A DNA stretch of 64,000 bases from contig NIVC01002719.1 of assembly GCA_002269645.1 (NCBI GenBank), positions 1 to 64,000 of the forward strand, given 5' to 3'. The DNA comes from Macrostomum lignano (Eukaryota). Shown in pieces: positions 11,612 to 64,000 of the stretch (positions are counted from its first letter, which is position 1; every line of letters begins with the position of its first letter). Made by a program: the position numbers and the translations under genes. The notes under the pieces are model-generated. The model did not search any database, was not told the DNA's origin, and saw nothing but the letters and a program-made list of their open reading frames with translations.

Positions 11612-14600
11612 ATGAATCAAAGTGACCGTGAGCCAGAACCTGAAGTTAAAGCTAGAACTACCACAAAATCATAAACAAAAAATGGAGTTAGGCTACATGT
11701 GTCTAAAATTGAATCTGTAGTGAAGATTACTTGGCCCAGATCCGGTTCAGGATGTCCTTGCGCCTGACTAGAATCAGGGGTAGGCATTCAAAGTCCACTA
11801 ATACCTTCATTAAACACTTTTCTGCAGACACGCAGCTTAACTCGGACTCTGAGAACTTCGATTCGAATTCGAATTCCAACAATGAAGATAAATTTTACTC
11901 CGTCGAAGAAGCGGTGGAGAGGCTGGGCTTTGGAAAATTTCAAATCAAGCTCCTGTTTATCACGGGAGTCATGACGGTGAGTTCTTTAAATTGTAAGGAC
12001 TTTAAATTTGCCTAAGAAAATCTGTCGAATTTACCACATTATTGGCTGCCAACGTCACGCTCACGAATAAAGTGTTAAACAGATTCTGCAGCTAATGTAC
12101 TAACATGCAATTTTATTTGTGCTCCACATTTCCGATGCTATGTATGCAAATGAGCCAAATTTTCACTTTCCCTACCCATGCCAGGCAGCGGACGCAATGG
12201 AGATGCTGCTACTGTCAGTGCTGGGCCCCGCGCTCCGCTGCGACTGGCGCCTGACGTCAGCTCAGGTGGCCGGCATCACCACTGTGGTGTTCGCTGGAAT
12301 GCTGCTCGGAGCTCCTGTCTGGGGCGCCGTGTCGGACAAGCGGGGTCGCTGGAGCGTGTCCGCCATCTGCTTCATCCTCATGGCCTACTTCGGCCTGCTC
12401 TGCTCGTTCGCGCCGAACTACTTCTGGCTCGCCAGCCTTCGCGGTATCGTGGGCTTCAACATCGGCGGTGCCGCCACATCCTTCACCCTGCTGTCCGAGT
12501 ACCTGCCTCAGCGGCACCGCGCCAAAGTGCTCATCCTCTTCAACCTGTTCTGGGGTGTTGGATCCACCTTTGAGATCCTGCTGGCTTACCTGGTGCTGCC
12601 CACTTTGGGCTGGAGATACCTGGTGGCCTTCTCTTCACTGCCGCTGATCTTGACGCTGCCATCGCTTTGGGTTAGTGATTTTTTTAAACTAATTATTCTC
12701 AAGTTAGCTATCGATAGACTTGTAAGAGCTCATTCGATCTGCCCTCAACTTGAGCTTCAACATAAGCTTAAAGCTTCAACATAAAAGCTTTGGTGTTGAT
12801 AAATAAGATAAATATTATTTTATCGCGCTTTTAAAACTTTTCAGTGCCTTCCGGAGTCAGCAAGATTCTTGCTGGCTTCTGGAAAAGCGGATGAGGCAGT
12901 TAAGGTAATTGACCAAATTGCACGAGAGAATGGCCGACCGTTGATGAAGGGCCGACCGGCAGGTATCTCTGAGGTAAGTTGACAAATCCATACTTGCTCA
13001 TGTCGAAATCTTTTTACGAGCAGACAAAAAGCAGATCCAAACTTTGCAGACAGAAACTCGAGGCCACATCTGGTCGCTGTTTCACACGTCCTACCGCCGA
13101 ACAACGCTAATCCTCTTCTGTCTGTGGTTCGGCATCGCCTTCTCCTACTACGGCATCGTGCTGGTCAGCTCGGAGATGTCTCAGCTGCGTCGGCAGTGCG
13201 ACCGAGGTCCGGCGCTGCTGCCGGGGTCGGAGAGCGTCGCTAGCAACGCCTCGTTGGTGAAAGACAACTCCTGCTGCAGAGGCCTCGAAGCGGAGGATTA
13301 CAAAGCTATGTTTATCTCATCGTTTGGCGAATTTTTAATAATTCCATTTAATCTTCTCACCATTGACTGGTTGGGTAGACGGTGGACTCTGGCGATCAAC
13401 TACCTGCTCATGGGGGTGTTCTTCGGCCTGATCTGCCTCTGTGTCCCGAGCGGCGTATCGGCAGCTTTTCTTCTGCTGGCTAGAGCGCATGCTGGGGGCA
13501 TTTTCAAAATCGATTACATCTATACTACTGAGGTGAGTAGGCTCTATTTTATCTATTTAACTGTTATCTTAAAATATTCCCATAGACATGCTGGGGGATT
13601 CACGCGTTACAGGTATTAGGCTTGAAGCCAGCGAACGCCAGCAGAAAAAATATGCTAGCGCACGAGAGAGCCGAGAGCTCATTTTGAGTTTACAACTCGC
13701 AGTAATTGGTGTCTCACGACTTCAATCTAATTCATCAAAGAAGCGGAGAACACAACAATTTCTATACATATAGGGGTACATCTGTGAGTTGTTAATTAAT
13801 GCACATGCCATATCGATTTGTTCCCTAGATCTCTTTACCTCTTTTTGACCGATTAGGTTCGGTCAATCGCCATTGACCAATCCACTGACCCATTTCCATT
13901 GACTAGCACAAATTTATCCCGCATTTATCCCTCTGCACCTAAAGTGCAGTCGATAATAATTGAAAACTAAATTATGCATATGCAATTTTGAGCGAAACAA
14001 TGGCTGGTCGGTTCAAGCGAACTTTTGCACCGCTTTTTATCTGTAAAACTTTATTGCTCAGCGGTAACCGCCTCAGACTCTCGCGCCATTACCAATGGTC
14101 GGTTCCGCTCGCGGCCACCTTCACTTAGGGCTTGTGTGCACGAAAATTCACCTCGAGGCAGTGTCGTCCGGTTTACAACCAAGGGCCAAGCACCACGACA
14201 CAGAGAGTGCAACATGCCTGACGATTAGAAAGTCGGAGCCGCTGTACATCCTGTGTGAGCGTGTATGAGTGCCGTGCCTGCGTTCAGTATCCGAGAGCTT
14301 GTATGTGTTCAGGAGTCAGCGGAATGGACAGAAATATTGCCGTCAGCTATGGTTGTGGAAAGATTTCATTGAAGGTATTGCTTCAGGGTAACTTTACAGC
14401 CCTCAAAGACCCCTGCAGTCATTACCTTTACCTTTTGGTGTTTTCGATAGTTTCTTTTGTTAATCTGTAAGTGGAATAAACATTAAAGCGGTGCTCAATT
14501 CAATTCTAATTCATTGCAGGTGTACCCTACCGTAATTCGAAGCATCGGCCTCGGTATCTGCTCCGCCATGGCTCGATTCGGTTCCATGAGCGCCCCGTTT

Positions 14601-36700: not shown

Positions 36701-39098
36701 TTTTGATTATTAATCTCGAGGTCTGGACTTACTTGCAAGATATCACTGACACACATGGTGGGCTGATAAAGTTGAAACTGAAGCTGTTATGCTGTCCATG
36801 GTAACAAAATTGCTAGGTCTCGTAAACATTTAAGAAGTATAACGAAATTCTCCGTGACTTTTGAAACACCCTAAGTCGATGCTGGGCTATAATATCTCGA
36901 ACGGATTATAGGTAGGGGAAAGTAAGGATTGCTATAAAAAATTGAAGTCAATTTGAATCTATGCCATCAGACTCACTTAGCATGGCCTCTGTAATTAATA
37001 AATATAAATTCAAAACAATTAAATAAAAAGGCAATATAATTTCGGACTCTTATCTAACAAATCCTTATACTAAACTAGCAGTGACCAGTAGTAAATTTCA
37101 TAAAACTGGACTCAAGCTTTGCTCCTGCTCTGTGGGGATTTAGAAATAAAATTGTATGCATACAAATGCTACATGTACGCTTATCATAGTGGTGATAGCT
37201 AACGAATACACGAATCTGGTGCACTATTACAAGTAATTCGACTCATTTTTTAATGATCAGCTCATCGATGATTAATAGCATAGGTGAATGACCACTAACT
37301 ATAAAGATTAAAAAAAAATAGCCCAAAACTGGGTTATAATTTGAACGAAAATGGAGTTTAATAACAATAGTTTAAATGCTGAACATGAACAAATAAGACC
37401 ACTCAAACAATTAATATTAATAAAAAATCCCTAACTTAGCACGAACTCACTGTAACACAAATAAGCACGAGTCACATGACCCTTCACTAACTACTAAGTA
37501 GGGTTCTTTATTTTTTAGTAATATGAATATCAAGCTTCACTGATCATAAAAAAACTGACCTGACCTAAAATGATCATGAATACTAAGCTATGACCCTTTA
37601 ATGACCATGACTGGTGGGATATGAACCTTTAATGACCTTGACTACTGAGCTATGACCCTTTAATGACTCTGACTGCTGAGCTATGGCCCTTTAATGACTA
37701 TGACTGGTGGGATATGACCCTTTAATGACCATGACTACTGAGCTATGACCCTTAAATGACTCTGACTGCAGAGCTATGACCCTTAAATGACTCTGACTGC
37801 TGAGCTATGACCCTTAAATGACTCTGACTGCAGAGCTATGACCCTTTAATGACCATGACTGCAGAGCTATGACCCTTCACCGAACCTTTACCACAATAAT
37901 AGAACTCACCGCATAAACAGGATGTAGAACTTTGACCCGCTCATTGTAATTCTATACAGAGCCATCAGCTGCGGCAACAAAGTGTCGGTCTGACAGTCGG
38001 TCACGTGATTCCAATAAGACGACAGCATCCGTTTCAGGGCGCCAGCTTCGCTTCGTTCAATAGTTTTAGCAAAGAAGGCGCCATCAGCCGAGCGCAGAAA
38101 CCTGCTAGACGAATGGCCGCGCGAGTCGCTGTCCCAGGCTGGCAGCTGCACAGTCCAGGCTGCTCGGAAATCTTCGCTGCAGCTGCCGCCGCCGTCTCTG
38201 CCATCAACTGAATAGACATTTGATGAGCCGAACTCCCGGCGCAGATGAGCAAACACCCGAGGGCAGTACTCTTTGAATTGGAAGCTGGCCGGCATGCCGC
38301 AGCTACTGTTTGGGGTGTGGAAATAAAATTGGGATATTTGTTGTACCGCCAGTGTATTTAAACTTCTCTCTTGCCCTTTATTCCCTTTTAGTCTTTTTTT
38401 ATCAAATCTCAAATAGTGATGACTCATCAACTTTTAGTTTTGGCATCCTGTTTCTTTCTGTGTGGCCCACAGAGGTACAGCGATAGTCCATACATGCGCA
38501 ACTTTGGGAATCACCCGGCCGTTTCTATTAGTAACACACACATGTAAGTCGCTAGTGGCTGAGAGCAGTCACGTGACTACTATTCCGTCCAATAGCGACT
38601 TACATGTGTGTGTTGCCAATAGAAACGGCCGAGTGAATCCCAAGGTTGCGCCCAAGCATGAGCGATACACATGTACATGGTAGGGTTATCTTGGCATCCT
38701 GAACTTCTTGAAGTTTTGATATATTTGCAAACATACTTCTGTCCACTGTAGTTCTGTCCACATCTTCATGAAATTTAACACCAAACACTTACAACCGAAC
38801 ACTTACACTCGAAAATGCTCCATAGATACAGTCACTTTGTGAACTCCAATAAAATCTTCTGCAACAAGAGCCTCTTCTTTTGCGCTGGAATCCAACTGGC
38901 TGAGCTAAAAAATTATATTGATTGTGCAAAGCTGAACAGACTATTGAAATTGAATTTCTACATTAAAGTACACACACTACTTACACTATAATTCACACTC
39001 CATGACATAACCAATTTGAGCTGTTTAGCTGTTACACAGAGTTCAGGATCTGAACAGGTGCACTGAGAGCCATTTCTCTTATCTGTGTGCTTGTCCAT
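33780..39098 (-). CDS. PIP4K2: Phosphatidylinositol 5-phosphate 4-kinase (type II PIP kinase)-like
   Basis: Exons 38985-39098, 38807-38904, 37910-38305, 34544-34839 and 33780-34075 join in phase. Motifs: SDP...WSVNYS, FQFKEYCPRVF, AKTI, TLLPQ, RKYDLKGS, PTLKDLDF, MDYSLLVGVH, IDILTDY, KRAACACK (Ala at the PIP4K/PIP5K specificity position), STVPPGQYAKRFLSF. Confidence 0.9.
34123..34449. repeat. 21-bp intronic minisatellite (gtaggatgctgtatgcttact)
   Basis: About 15 units filling most of the last PIP4K intron. Confidence 0.95.
35030..35460. repeat. Irregular intronic minisatellite (aaacacaccagccctata / aaagcccgttt modules)
   Basis: Interleaved 17-18-bp modules. Confidence 0.85.
36032..36388. 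mobile_element. MITE with ~105-bp terminal inverted repeats
   Basis: aaaggatcgctcatctgaaagcgagtctatgg...ccccctaagtt is mirrored at ~36280-36388; no clean TSD. Confidence 0.8.
37590..37878. repeat. 31-bp intronic minisatellite (atgacccttaaatgactctgactgcagagct)
   Basis: About 9 units. Confidence 0.92.
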
Positions 39099-57300: not shown

Positions 57301-58637
57301 TCAGTCTGTCTGCCTTTCGAGCCGGCAAGTGGGGCAGTGCCACACCCTTGACGGTGCTAGCTTTGCGATTCCAACGCAGAACTGGTGATGCCAGGCTTTA
57401 CAGGAATCACAGGCAATCTGTGATGAAGATAAAGGGGCATGGGGAAGGTAATTTTGACACGTGTACTGCTGCTGTGTGCAAATGTTTCTTACCCATTCAT
57501 CCGGCTTCCTGTGCCGCCGAGTCGAAAAAAACTTCCTCCTCGCCACAGGTGAAGCACAGGCCACTTGAGCCGATGGCGGCCTTCACCAAGGTATTCCAGA
57601 TGCGCAGTCTCTGGTAAGGGAGGTTGTGAACGACTTCTGGCAGGACGGTGTGCTTCGTATAAATGACGCTCTCCGCAAAGAGGCACACCAGGATGCCACA
57701 GCTGTAGCTGTCCTCCTGAACGAAGTGCCCTGGCATGCGTGCAGGCTTGTCCAGGGTCGGCCAGCCAGTAAGATGTTGCAGTTGGCTGCGTGCAGATTAG
57801 GTGGGTGTTTAGGGGTAAGTAGCAATGTGGGTGTTTCGCAAACTTTTGGACCTTCATGTCGAAATGGAGCAAGTTTACTGTTTCAACAGAACTTTAGCTT
57901 ACTTGACAGCGATAACGAATTTCTTAGTCAGCTCGTCGCTCTGCCTGACCTTCGGGTCAATGACAACGAGACTGCGCAGTCGTAAGTCTATGACGAGCAG
58001 GCAAAAGTGATGGCTAAGTAGCAGAGGGCCGACAAGAATGCGGGAGCCTGCCTTCCTATTAGCATTCACAAGCTTCGTCTGAAGTTCGTCTTGCAGGATG
58101 GCGTCCCCTAGTGTGTCCACCTCGTAGTTGTACAGATGCGTAATGCCACACTTAGCCTGACATGCCAGTACAGCTATGTAGGCGTTGGGGATCTGCAGCA
58201 GTGAACGAGGGGAATGCATGATGAGATTTTAATTTTAATCATCAACGAGTGATTCAGTTTCGACACGTACACTTGCTGAAATCCAGCGTGTGCCATGCAA
58301 GCTGTCACGCTCATAGGTCCAGATAGCGTAGTCCGATCTGTCAGTTCTGACGGTGAACAGCTTTCGCTCCGTATCCACCGATGCAGAACTTTGACGCCGT
58401 TTAGCTGGTCGGTTGGTTAGGTAAGTCAAAAACGTCTCCTCGTAACTTTGGCTGACTCGCTTACGGCTCGGCTGGCTAGCTGGCTGGCTGGTCGGCTGGC
58501 TGGCTGACTGGTCGGCTGGCTTGATTGCTGACTGGCTGGTCGGCTGTTCGGCAGGTCGGTTGGTTGGCTGGCTGGCTGACTGGTCGGCTGGCTTGCTTGC
58601 TGACTGGCTGGTCGGCTGGCAAGTCGTCGCGTCAAGT
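57301..58637 (-). pseudogene. Spliced Ulp1/SENP-like (C48) cysteine protease plus C-terminal PHD finger; 5' end missing
   Basis: Exons ~58637-58271, 58192-57903, 57785-57493 and 57417-57301 give WISAS|IPNAY...HHFCLLVID...VQEDSYSCG...CFTC...W|IACDSCKAWHHQFC...WHCPTC. The only internal lesion is one extra T in a T7 run at ~57525-57531. Confidence 0.8.
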
Positions 58638-61600
58638 CAAGGTCAAGTCGTCGCGCTGGCAGAATTTGCCCCAGAGCCTGCAGGGAAAAATAAATTTTTG
58701 TATATCGGGCTACTGTAAGTAGAAAAACACAGTCTCCCCGGGAAAAATATGTTTTTGTATATTGCGAATATCTGGCTACTAGCACAGTCTCCCCAACTTA
58801 CGAGTGTAGAAAAATCTTGGCAACAAAGCGCAGGCCAGGATTCTCTTCCACCTTGTCAAGCCGGACGCCTTCGCGCTCGAAAAAGCTGGCCATGTAGGCA
58901 GCCTTGGCGTCCTCAGTCATTCCCGGCGAACCGCTAGACTCGGCTTTGAGCTTTAAAAAAGTGTTTACATAGTCTGCAAACAAGCCCGTGCGAGTCTTGG
59001 TCCAATAGGCCAGGGCATGAACTGACTGCAGCTTGTAACCCAACTGCAGGGCTTTGTGGAGCTCTGGGGTCGACCACGTGCCGCGGAGCATTCTCTCAGC
59101 GTCAGAGTGTGTACACTCGCTGCTGCACTGTGTCTCCATGCAGACGCGGCAGAGGCCGAAAACCAGCTTCTTGCTAATCTTGGCGGGCAGTAGCGGAATG
59201 TGGAGATTGGTTGGCGCAGAATCGATACCTCGGCGATACCAAAATACCGGGCCAGCTGCTGCTCATCCAGTAGATGAGGCTCGGGGTGGTGAACCGGGTG
59301 CCCGACAGGGTACTTGTCAAACTTGTTGACAGTCGGGTAGAGCGACACCTAGGGGATAAGTAGGCTAAACTCAAACGCATGTCAACTGTGTGTGTGTGTG
59401 TGTGTACATGAGAAATTTTGAAAAGTGTACAAACTTACCACATCCCGATAGCGCAGCTTCAGTCTCAGTGGCCTCGGCGTGCGGGACAAAAGCCTCGGTG
59501 CGGCCGCCAAACAGGGCTTCCTCCAGGCGAATAGGCTACTGAACTGGTGCTCCCTCGCCCTGATAGTCGTGCTCCCACAAAACACGTACATCAGCGTACA
59601 TCAGTGAAGCGCTCAGTCTCTTCATAAATCGCCCGCATTGGCTGGTTCTTGAGCGGGTGCAGCACGTCACCGTTGGGGAAGCACTTTGGGCAACCATGGA
59701 AGAAACAGCCGTGAAACTGGAGCACTGTCCTAGTCTCCGAGTCAAAGCCATCCACCTTACGGCCCATGGCGAAAGCCTCGCCGCCAGAATCGGCTGTCCT
59801 CAACCGGCCGCCAAACTCGGTTGCATTCAAATGCGCAAGCCAGCACCGCGCCTTGTGCGACTGCACAACTGATCGGCGGGAAATCACCCCAAGAGTGTTG
59901 GGCTCCATAAACTTGGTGGTGAATACAGCCATAGCCAAGCCCGCAATGGCGTTGGATTGGACAAATGCGTCCAGTCCGCAAATGTCCTTAATCAGGCAGG
60001 CGTATTTAAGACAGCCTTCCCGCAAAATTAGAGTGTCCTGCAGGCAATAGTCCAGGTACTCCTCGTTGAAATTAAACACTCGACCCTCCTGCTTGGCCAG
60101 CCAGTCGGCGATGGAGTCGTGCTGCTTGTTCTTTTTCCCTCCGTACATATCAATCGAGCAGTAGGGCCCCACGTAACCCCAGTTTTGCGGCTGATTGAAC
60201 ACGTGCGGGAAATCTCCTTTGGTCAGTTGGGTGCCCAAACCAAGCGCCTTTGGGAATTGCGCCAGACCAATAGGGATAAAGTTGAGGCTGTCCTTGAACG
60301 TGATCTTGTCGCACTTCATGTACATTAGGCGGCTGTTCTGGAAGATCACTTGTGGCTTCTTCTTGGCCAGTCCGTTGAGTAGGGCGCCGAGCAGGAGGAA
60401 TGCGTCATACGCAGAGCCGTTGTGCGCAATAGCAATTGCCCTTTGCTTGAAGACACTAGTCAGCCAGCAGTAAAAGGCATCGATAGAGTGAGGCCCGACT
60501 GATACAAACTCTCGCATCCCACAGGCACAGTCATTGTGCGAGACACAGCTCGTAAAAACCAGCGCCAGATTGCGTCCCGCAATGCAATTGGCTGAGCTGT
60601 GTAGCCCCCCGCACGCGCCGCAGCGGGGCCTAGGGAAGAGTTTGGGACACGCCTCGCAGGAGGTGGCAGCCGTAACCAAGTGTACCCGGTGCTGCTTGCC
60701 AGAGTCTACGTACGTCTCGAAATCGTAGTAAACGTACGGCGCGCTAGACTCTTTAGCTTTGGGCGGGGTGACAAAGCACTCGTGGGTGGCCGTTTCGTCG
60801 TACTGCTTACAGACTGGACACTTGGCGTACCCGCACTGATGCTCGGGGGCCTGGCCTACTTTCAGTTCTTCTAGATAGCCACACGTGCCGCAAACGTGGA
60901 CTGAATCACAGCGCGATCTACCCGCCTTATTCTTGCGCTTGTGATTCTCTAGGCACTGAGCATTATAACAATTTAGCCCGCAATCATGGCATCTTACATA
61001 TGCGCGGTTAGCCTTGCAGTTGGAGCCCGGAGTCTTGCAGGTGCTACAAGCGTTAGCGCACTTGTGCTTCTCATAATTGCAGTCGTAGGCCATCTCGCAC
61101 TTGGCGCAGTAGCGGCGGGCCCCGAAAAACGCAGGCAGCTTGGTGACCACATTGAAGTGCTGCTCTACGAGGTGGAGGTGCAGAATCTCGGTGCGGCAGC
61201 TCATAGATGCACCTGTTGGCCTCCTCTGCCCGGTACACTCGTACACCAAAATCGTGGCTGGATGCAGACGGTTCAAGGCACGGATCGCCTCGGGCAGTAC
61301 ATCCACCCCGAAAGGGCCACCCTGCTGAAACTTGTCTAGCCCTCCCCAACGATTATCTGTTACAGCCCCTACCAATTTCTTATCAGCAACGTACCCTTCC
61401 GCCACCAGACCCCTGCAGCTGTCGCAGCAGCCCCAGTCTTTGTTGTTTACTCTGCTGCACCCCTCCAATTCCCTGCAGCTGTTAACCCTAGCAACTCTCT
61501 GTCTGTTTTTGCAGCAATTTCTTATCAGTACCCTGCTGCCGCACACCCCCCGCCTGTCTGGACACGCACAACACCCTACCCGAGGCAAAATCTTATCAGT

Positions 61601-62125
61601 CTTTGTTTACTCTGCTGCACCTCTCCCACAGACCCTGCAGCTGTTGCTGCTAACCCTGCTGAAACGTGTCTAGCCCTCCTCAACCACACCCCAGTAGTTT
61701 TTTGCTACAGACCCTGCCAATTTCTTATCTGCACCCCGACCGCGCTACCCTAGCAACTCCGGTCTAGACCCCTGCAGCTGTCGCAGCAGTCTCAGTCTTT
61801 GTTGTTTACTCTGCTGCCCCACAGACCCTACCGCAGCAACTCCCTCTTTTTTTGCAGCAATTTCTTATCTGCACCCCAGCTGCGGCCTGTCTGGGCAGCA
61901 CCCTCTCTGCACCAATTTCTAATCAGTCTGTCCCCGCACATCCTGCTGGAACTTGTCTAAACCCCTGCAGCTGTCGCAGCAGCTCACCCCTGCCAATTCT
62001 TATCAGTACCCTACCCTAGCAACTCTAGTCTAGACTAGACGGCCAGAAATTAATTAAAACTTACCATAAAGACGCTGCCTCTTATCAGCCAGGAAAGCAG
62101 TTGCTGCGGCGCTGCGTTTAGCCAT
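58638..62125 (-). pseudogene. polB: Maverick/Polinton (adintovirus-type) protein-primed family B DNA polymerase, intron-containing and 3'-truncated
   Basis: ExoI YYDFET, ExoII AHNGSAYD, KDSLNF, ExoIII YCLQDTLIL, Vsr-like insert VDGF...FHGCFFHGC, FGGRT, motif A YRDV|VSLYP and motif B KIFLHS|LWGKF. GT-AG introns at 59349-59438 and 58678-58801. Putative first exon 62065-62125 (MAKRSAAA..., GTAAG donor). Motif C is absent. Confidence 0.9.
61320..62040. repeat. Shuffled degenerate repeat modules between polB exon 1 and the polB body
   Basis: ctgctgaaac(t/g)tgtcta-type modules at ~61323, 61658 and 61944; recurring tttcttatc and ccctgcagctgtcgcagcag modules. Confidence 0.75.
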
Positions 62126-62362: not shown

Positions 62363-62806
62363 ATGTCTTCTATCTCTCTATACGAAAACGTTGTGGCGCG
62401 GAAGCCCACATTTGAAACTGAACACAACTTGATTGAAATTCGGCGGCTCTACACAGACGAGGCTGGAGTGTGGAAGGACGGCTTCCCTGCAATCTACTTG
62501 AGCGAGCGAGAGTGGAAGAAGCTCGAAGCTGCGCGCCCTGACCTGGAGGCTGCTGCCCGCCTTCACGTGGACAAGAGGGTCGTGTTGGGCAGTTTCAAGG
62601 CTATCGAAGCTTCACAGGGTAGGATTCGTTTGCGGCGCAATTGGCTCAATCGGGATCCAAAGTTTAATTGGCGCTAAACGATCGAATTCACGCCTGAACT
62701 GTGGCGCCGGATGTTTGCCTCCCGTTTGGACAAGCTCTTCAAGCCGGCACCCGAAGCCCCACCGCCTGCGAAGCGAGCCAAGACAGAGGACAATCTGCAG
62801 GACTGA
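62363..62806 (+). CDS. Tandem PC4/Sub1-like ssDNA-binding protein with one in-frame TAA at 62675-62677
   Basis: IEIRRLYTDEAGVWKDGFPAIYLSEREWKKL fits the PC4 fold pattern; the frame continues past the stop as *TIEFTPELWRRM...PPPAKRAK, completing a second PC4-like repeat and an NLS-like tail. Confidence 0.65.
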
Positions 62807-63324: not shown

Positions 63325-64000
63325 TAAGGGAATTTCTCTTTGTACTCTATTACTCTCTGCCTGCACTGTACTTGGGCCTCGCAACACACTGGAGGATCCC
63401 TCAACTTGGAGAGCTACCCTCTGGGGATCCACTAAAATCCCTCATTGGGGGTTGGGAGCTGCGGTAAAGTTTGACTGGAATTCTCTTTGTATGCGGTTTG
63501 TTACTCTACCTCCACTCTACATTGGGGCGGGATCCCTTCATCATTTGACACCCAGGAGCGCACTGTACATTGGGGGCGGTCTCTATTACTCTCTGCCTGC
63601 ATGCACTGTACTTGGGATCCCCCACAGTCCCTTGAATATAACCCTATTTGAGGCTCCATGGGAGGAATTCTCTTTGTATGCGGTCTGTTACTCTGCCCGC
63701 ACTGTGCAATGTGAGGGGTCCCTTGAATAATAAACCCTATTTGGAAGCCCCTGGCAGGAAAAACAGCTCTCCGCCCACACTGTACTAGGTGAGGAGTCCT
63801 AAACTCCCATTTGACACCTCGCCCCAACTGTACATTCTGGCGAGATCCCTTCAAGTGATAAAACACTCATTTGACACCTCAACCCCGGAGCGCACTGTAC
63901 TTGGGATCCCCCCTGAATATAACCCTATTTGTATGCGGTTACTCTGCCGTCACCGTACTTGGTAAGGGGTCCTTGATAACCCCCATTGGGGAGGAAAATA
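63325..64000. repeat. Degenerate 150-190-bp tandem repeats, possibly subterminal repeats of the PolB element; continues off the window
   Basis: ggaattctctttgtatgcggt at ~63478 and ~63664; cactgtacttggg and accctattt recur. Confidence 0.75.

Follow-up and report, generated by a model that had tools for sequence, protein, structure and literature searches.

Polintons or Mavericks (polintoviruses, adintoviruses) have been described as elements of 13-25 kb in which the genes for a polymerase, an integrase and virion proteins are carried together (10.1101/2023.08.22.554363; PMC6431247; these and the other published sources are cited here for the portions of their text that were available). The locus described here, in the flatworm Macrostomum lignano, is a broken copy of a predicted gene for a family B DNA polymerase of the protein-primed kind (pPolB). 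It lies in what is called the window below: the whole stretch of DNA that was analysed, 64,000 nucleotides (nt) long, positions 1 to 64,000 of the forward strand of contig NIVC01002719.1 (assembly GCA_002269645.1). Our reading, to which we give a probability of about 0.74, is that the window holds a broken, polymerase-only element of Polinton type, likely one half of a bipartite Polinton whose other half carries the integrase and capsid genes, and that the two halves complement each other in trans. The gene carries six introns, three of which (A, B and C) cut all three catalytic motifs of the polymerase.

Full copies of the polymerase half are 8.5-10 kb long, with ends that start with ACTAC, terminal inverted repeats (TIRs) whose identity reaches 100%, and 6-bp target duplications that are intact. 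They encode pPolB, a divergently placed PC4-like open reading frame (ORF), ORF2, and optionally an orphan, ORF3. Identities of 28-32% to full-length pPolBs and a match to Pfam PF03175 point to a protein-primed family B polymerase. ORF2 matches Pfam PC4 with E=0.011, and human PC4 accounts for the top six matches in PDB to a structural model of an ORF2 paralogue (E 0.007-0.02, TM 0.8 over the PC4 domain). ORF3 (L098:7222-8301) has no Pfam match and includes a 91-nt GT-AG intron that is skipped in X5 and X6, two of the sequencing runs discussed below. The polymerase is present in at least 87 dispersed copies and in two subfamilies, A and B, which are 55-75% identical in the polymerase exons. In a tree of 68 sequences both subfamilies group in a single clade (support 1.0), and the uninterrupted polymerases of complete Polintons are a long way off: the distance between the subfamilies is 0.65 substitutions per site, and that to the complete-Polinton polymerases of the same genome is 4.6-5.3. 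The polymerase exons are under strong purifying selection. The ratio of nonsynonymous to synonymous substitution (dN/dS), computed pairwise between real copies with gap and stop codons dropped, is 0.06-0.16 in A, 0.03-0.27 in B and 0.07-0.14 between subfamilies, and exons downstream of each intron are as constrained as those upstream. Queries for the genes of the other half, among them integrase, capsid, ATPase and protease, matched none of the 31 polymerase-bearing stretches; the same search found five of these genes in a distant complete Polinton. Target duplications on an element that has no integrase gene of its own imply that an integrase is supplied. Elsewhere in the genome, contig C234 (L114:5214-7400) holds an AT-rich, broken pPolB that is 35-46% identical to the family, has motifs A, B and C uninterrupted and adjoins a divergent orphan ORF of 1008 amino acids (aa).

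The candidate partner was reached by following the end sequences. It is an element of ~10 kb with the same kind of ends, TIRs and 6-bp duplications. Its integrase matches Pfam rve (E=2.5e-8) plus chromo, its major capsid protein (MCP) is modelled as a double jelly roll (pLDDT 86) and matches the capsids of PBCV-1, mavirus and Sputnik (E ~1e-15), and it also encodes a P-loop ATPase and a His-Asp-Cys protease (Pfam C48, E=0.06). The core genes appear to be single ORFs. About 60 capsid sites are listed in the genome (62 in the site comparison described below). Polymerase exons had no match in 19 of 19, 4 of 4 and 2 of 2 partner copies (25 stretches); the 19 were examined with 17-20 kb of context, and two pairs among the partner copies are the same insertion twice. 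The partner genes are under purifying selection, which is clear between its two subfamilies (dN/dS of 0.03 for MCP, 0.06 for the ATPase and 0.08 for the integrase). In both halves the synonymous sites have come close to saturation between subfamilies, which is compatible with co-divergence and gives no date. Partner subfamily A has a Fic-domain ORF near its left end (L157:2245-3021, Pfam E=6.7e-14), and none was found there in the one B copy read. Capsids 78-80% identical to that of the partner occur on short contigs of other assemblies (P0160-P0162): close relatives exist elsewhere.

What ties the two elements together is the sequence of their ends. The partner also comes in two subfamilies, one starting ACTACTA like polymerase subfamily A and the other ACTACGTA like polymerase subfamily B. 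Over the first 31 bp, polymerase and partner ends of the same subfamily agree at 21.6 and 23.1 positions of 31, ends within each half at 21.7-23.8, and ends of different subfamilies at 14.8-16.9. This pairing (21 and 17 elements, with one false pair, C1300, left out) gave p<1e-4 in a permutation test in which related elements count as independent. Genome-wide, A-type ends number 268 and B-type ends 211, and the controls gave none. Identical 31-bp haplotypes are found on both halves, at least five in A and at least two in B, as counted by eye among the first 100 listed of the 268 and 211. Because they share these end sequences, the halves are likely to depend on each other. Both are usually 8.3-11 kb long with TIRs mostly of 0.24-1.4 kb, and the 6-bp target duplications match in 30 of 32 end pairs, one of the misses being a false pair at a microsatellite. 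Positions 8-26 of the ends are hypervariable and resemble mosaics of short blocks (e.g. L097:50-80), and the next 20 bases are nearly fixed per class; in 11 of 33 cases an element does not have the same first 31 bp at both of its ends.

The introns of the polymerase gene were the subject of a sequence-only reading of the window, which had described two of them and had missed the intron in motif C, the element ends and the partner element. The two lie exactly where it placed them. Intron A (59438..59349, minus strand; 90 nt, GTAAGT...TAG, phase 0) splits D-V|V-S-L-Y-P inside motif A and contains a CA/TG microsatellite and in-frame stops. Intron B (58801..58678, minus strand; 124 nt, GTAAGT...CAG, phase 2) lies inside motif B and cuts the Ser codon ahead of LWGKF, where the window reads HS and the other copies shown read NS. 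Each intron is 39% GC, and the flanking exons are 56% GC. The same reading had proposed a check of the junctions, and this was made on assembled contigs from sequencing runs that are guessed to be RNA: compared with the window, the exact 90-nt segment is skipped in X1 and X5 and the exact 124-nt segment in X5 and X7, with correct ends. For a full-length copy, introns A, B and C and the 232-nt intron 3 are skipped in X5, X6 and X10, and the 761-nt intron 1 in X5 and X6; intron 2, of roughly 70 nt, shows an off-register joint in X5, X6 and X10 with GT and AG at the expected places. Single contigs span the B and C junctions (X5, X6) or all of A, B and C (X10). None of the pPolB intron joints is found in X15, a run of unknown kind that appears to behave as DNA. 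In public gene models that carry the label Macrostomum lignano and match the window at 91-93% identity, the motifs are joined already.

GT-AG ends, free length and removal in the probable-RNA runs indicate U2-type spliceosomal introns, so the proposal that expression needs host splicing stands. A self-splicing intron or an intein is a poor description of segments of 53-128 nt that fall in all length classes modulo 3 and hold in-frame stops; such lengths are too short for either. At least 40 close paralogues of the window stretch exist (40 scored of 88 candidates), and a short-motif search found both junctions in 28 of 30 fetched loci, with the introns present in all 28. In the 54 paralogous records that were fetched and had two or more introns recognised, counted after dropping re-fetched loci, intron A is 53-128 nt and intron B 67-124 nt long, and intron lengths cover all three classes modulo 3; the introns were found by splice-site patterns, so tallies of GT and AG are partly circular. 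The exon between introns A and B is 548 nt in 35 of 47 records. Motif C of the paralogues holds intron C, phase 2 in a Ser codon: a pattern for the split motif C has 87 matches in the genome, its reversed control none. A pattern for uninterrupted motif B (coding NSLWGKF) has 0 matches in the genome. A comparison of paralogous copies had been suggested; both introns are in all recognisable copies, and insertion after decay of the gene is rejected, since the introns are in all those paralogues and are spliced.

That the introns are gains had also been proposed, and this is supported for A, B and C: the motifs are uninterrupted in 61 distant homologues of full length and in one diverged relative in the genome. 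All three are at the same positions in both subfamilies and would have been gained before the subfamilies split; being common to two subfamilies with near-saturated synonymous sites, they are old. Two sources were tried and rejected. Introners would share sequence, and here pairwise similarity between introns is no better than between shuffles: A, B and C show no relation, either to one another or across subfamilies (all p>=0.06). Transfer from host polymerases does not fit either, the delta-like and alpha-like genes being uninterrupted in motifs A, B and C. The host zeta-like gene is uninterrupted in motif C (the loci read cover C, without A and B).

Why introns should sit in catalytic motifs is a separate question. 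On a conservation profile built from the 61 homologues of full length, intron A falls in the top 4.2% of sites, B in the top 0.1% and C in the top 4.8%. Introns 2 and 3 lie where conservation is poor, and intron 1 lies beyond the alignable core. The enrichment at conserved sites has a Fisher p of 0.007 and the probability of three of six in the top 4.8% is 0.002; a figure of 2e-5 for placement in motif windows is post hoc. Conserved sites are reported to be preferred by inteins and group I introns but not by spliceosomal introns (PMC2814812). The explanation that we lean to, at somewhat less than even odds, is biased retention: introns persist in motifs A, B and C since only exact removal is tolerated there. 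A close rival, possible if somewhat unlikely, is that homing-type nucleases of competing elements broke the gene in its motifs and that a spliceable insert repaired it and destroyed the cut site. The preference of inteins and group I introns for conserved sites, not shared by spliceosomal introns, would be in keeping with such breaks, as would the homing endonuclease genes of Polinton-like viruses and the HNH domain that some pPolBs have (10.1101/2023.08.22.554363; PMC12220804); against it, no nuclease with such a target was identified. An unrelated metagenome contig (L218), whose motifs A and C are intact, carries a GT-AG, intron-like insert that interrupts motif B at its Trp codon, 5 nt away from where intron B lies; of the seven other loci from that scan, four cover motif B and none of the four has such an insert. 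(A search of IMG/VR found only distant relatives, at nine loci.) Classified with a profile, 61 of 140 distant proteins end early: 7 do so within motif B or shortly after it, another 4 at motif A and a further 7 at the VSR motif. These endings could be read as further scars; against that, one such relative was checked in DNA, the rest may reflect contig ends or frameshifts, and alignments to a profile are prone to stop at conserved columns. The putatively spliced L218 insert hints at repeated intron gain at catalytic motifs, as a lead rather than a result. That the introns came to lie at motifs by chance or for other causes is a little less probable still. A gene with an intron in every catalytic motif, together with apparent hits at near-identical sites in other lineages, makes targeted gain and biased retention testable against each other.

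If the two halves do form one system, the host spliceosome would make the polymerase mRNA, and the spliced polymerase, with the PC4-like protein as helper, would copy by protein priming any linear DNA that has the 31-bp end, so that both halves are replicated. The integrase of the partner would insert both halves, and its capsid could package either. Displaced strands of co-replicating halves might exchange ends, which would give the pooled haplotypes. This scheme draws on Polinton biology (PMC11161782) and otherwise on general background. A more specific version, which is speculative and rather doubtful, would make the pair a bipartite, integrating, double-stranded DNA polintovirus of an animal, with a replication segment and an integration and virion segment that are still co-packaged and co-transmitted and have co-diverged into two compatibility groups, each marked by a pooled, hypervariable 31-bp terminal code, and with introns at all three catalytic motifs left behind by nuclease conflict, a pattern that other Polinton lineages would have come to independently.

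Several points weigh against the bipartite reading. Complementation, replication and packaging are all inferred. The protease and ATPase of the partner have weak Pfam scores only, and further ORFs were labelled minor capsid, PW, PZ and cement by position and by presumed likeness. Several genes of partner subfamily B have dN/dS of 0.35-0.69 and many copies are broken, which is consistent with decay after insertion or with frameshift noise. The non-independence of elements in the permutation test bears on the pairing of the ends, and bases 32-50 are alike in polymerase-A and partner-B, so that the TIRs beyond base 31 break that pairing. On the side of the introns, three of the six are at poorly conserved sites, and the runs in which splicing is seen are only guessed to be RNA and were read as assembled contigs. 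A rare joined copy may also exist given the scope of the genome searches, which score the best candidates (168 and 111 ends lie outside the listing, and 11 stretches were left out).

A joined copy would matter most to the idea that both halves are deletion derivatives of a full-length Polinton, low in copy number or missing from the assembly, that supplies all functions. Gene-less derivatives with the same ends are indeed common (palindromic forms of 7-9 kb and forms of 3 kb), the halves sum to the normal gene set and size of a Polinton (13-25 kb; 10.1101/2023.08.22.554363), and the searches cover the best candidates only. Yet passive derivatives should not keep their own genes at a dN/dS near 0.1, two deeply diverged subfamilies are split in the same way, and no joined element was found in the 56 stretches examined, the site lists or the four long end pairs (14-22 kb). 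Among 91 polymerase and 62 capsid sites a contig is shared in two cases only, with the sites 47 kb and 166 kb apart. Of the four long end pairs, two lack both modules, one proves to be a polymerase half carrying a retroelement-like insert and one has a nested Polinton of another family; the last, a 21-kb pair with integrase and capsid, was rejected as a joined element for that reason, the nested copy lying in a gene-less derivative. On balance we regard a hidden complete element as unlikely. It is harder still to credit that each half is an independent parasite of unrelated complete Polinton families and not of the other half. Several such families are present in the genome, with uninterrupted polymerases and their own integrase and capsid, but their ends differ from the ACTAC type (they are AGTAGT-, AAAGTAG- or TGTAAG-like), their polymerases are as distant as given above, and the matched terminal haplotypes would be left unexplained. 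The least probable account, to which we attach very little weight, is that of a formerly viral polymerase long settled in the nucleus, which gained introns as host genes do and is no longer mobile or virus-borne. The sequence-only reading had drawn this conclusion from the introns, and they are indeed old, canonical and spliced. It is contradicted at the level of the element: the gene lies on a recently mobile element that is present in at least 87 dispersed copies, with near-perfect TIRs and distinct, intact target duplications, and is paired with a partner whose capsid and integrase are under purifying selection. Introns do not, on this analysis, exclude a viral life: they are compatible with one because the DNA polymerase of a chlorella virus has an intron of spliceosome type (PMC6247863).

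Other derivatives with these ends and with 6-bp duplications are 7-18 kb long and hold no genes (L102-L105, L243-L244); several of them are giant palindromes with arms of 3-4 kb. In one 3.2-kb ACTAC-type derivative, a mariner transposase (L106:1047-2189) was considered as the missing integrase and rejected as a nested insertion. The nested Polinton of another family (L245:6592 to L246:8711), inside a gene-less ACTAC-type element, has a PC4-like ORF of its own, so PC4-like genes are part of other Polintons in this genome too.

The window copy itself is a broken remnant. Its outermost feature is the inner part of the upstream TIR (63360..64000, no strand), which continues beyond the window to about base 65,090 of the contig and terminates in a subfamily-A-like terminus. 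ORF2 (62363..62677, plus strand), a PC4-like putative single-stranded-DNA-binding protein, is divergent from pPolB and shorter than in other copies (165-197 aa). The first coding exon of pPolB (62065..62125, minus strand; 61 nt) starts with ATG and is joined to exon 2 in full copies. A third intron had been suspected after this exon; its donor is real and the intron is the one of 761 nt spliced in full copies. In the window that donor is present and the acceptor is missing, leaving a remnant of intron 1 (61326..62064, minus strand) as aligned to full elements. By the same alignment the window copy lacks exons 2-3 with introns 2-3 (~1 kb or more), and it has intron 1 without its end and the large exon without its start. 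What is left of the large exon (59439..61325, minus strand; broken) holds a Cys/His-rich region, an exonuclease region that matches Pfam PF03175 (E=1.4e-12), a VSR-like motif and the first half of motif A; the VSR-like label is one that we take from the motif FHGCFFHG and from the source name of a relative. The exon between motifs A and B (58802..59348, minus strand) is 547 nt here, and frame-shifting differences lie near 59600, 59460 and 59215. The exon after intron B is represented by its start (58640..58677, minus strand), and at 58640 the element is cut off and abuts another repeat; motif C with its intron is missing, as are the last exon and the downstream TIR. A near-identical duplicate of the window copy is present on another contig.

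Beside this break, at 57342-58228 on the minus strand, is a gene with two introns (117 and 75 nt) that are skipped in the probable-RNA contigs. It has what we take to be a protease-like pattern (His/Asp/Gln-Cys) and, after it, a PHD-like one (Cys/His), and no Pfam match. Because this sequence is a separate low-copy repeat at the break (~7 loci), a fusion of the polymerase to a downstream protease-like gene was rejected; the repeat is possibly a Mutator-like element that truncated the polymerase copy. Elsewhere in the window are pieces of host-type genes (a C-type lectin at 586-1275, an MFS transporter at 12104-12781 and a PIP5K domain at 37909-38433) and long tandem repeats at 24.4-33 kb.

The literature searched (Repbase, subscription journals and supplements were outside the search) yielded no bipartite Polinton and no study of Polintons in Macrostomum, and the available portions of PMC12220804 and 10.64898/2026.10.13.758929 contain nothing on segmentation. 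Screens that demand polymerase and integrase in one stretch (10.1101/2023.08.22.554363) would miss a split form, and 'defective' Polintons without polymerase or integrase elsewhere may be halves of such systems. A two-part Polinton, if true, would link Polintons to segmented bidna-like viruses and provide a laboratory flatworm model for the start of genome segmentation and for the matching of segments via shared ends.

Set against known systems, the locus is closest to Polintons of the VSR-like pPolB class, with which it shares a PF03175 pPolB, an rve+chromo integrase, a double-jelly-roll capsid, an ATPase, a cysteine protease, TIRs and 6-bp duplications. It differs in that this gene set is split over two separately integrating elements of ~10 kb: an integrase is beside the polymerase in 0 of 31 stretches and is found on the partner, as are the capsid, ATPase and protease that are absent from the polymerase half. 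The TIRs and target duplications are within the Polinton ranges of 100-1500 bp and 5-8 bp, and the length of 13-25 kb is reached by the sum of the halves and not by either one. Evidence for a virion consists of the predicted capsid fold and the purifying selection on the capsid. Neither half alone passes as a Polinton; together they would work like one. Bidnaviruses and the Drosophila Vesanto virus are alike in being segmented, with a Polinton-related family B polymerase and matching segment termini (PMC8502044, PMC8363768), comparable to the shared outer 31 bp here. They differ in having parvovirus-like single-stranded DNA, NS1 and a single-jelly-roll capsid (PMC11071296), whereas the partner described here encodes an integrase along with a double-jelly-roll capsid, and integration is common to the two halves (no profile search for NS1 was made). 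As to the introns, intact vertebrate Mavericks have been described as intronless (PMC8097293), and here there are six in pPolB and one in ORF3. Introns by themselves are unusual rather than unique. Spliceosomal introns occur in the introner-bearing eupolintoviral elements of dinoflagellates (PMC12166617), unlike which introns A, B and C are unrelated in sequence, old and in catalytic motifs. Intervening sequences are also known at conserved polymerase sites (PMC2814812), as is the spliceosome-type intron of a viral polymerase (PMC6247863); those described in PMC2814812 differ from the short GT-AG introns of this gene, which at 53-128 nt have no coding capacity.

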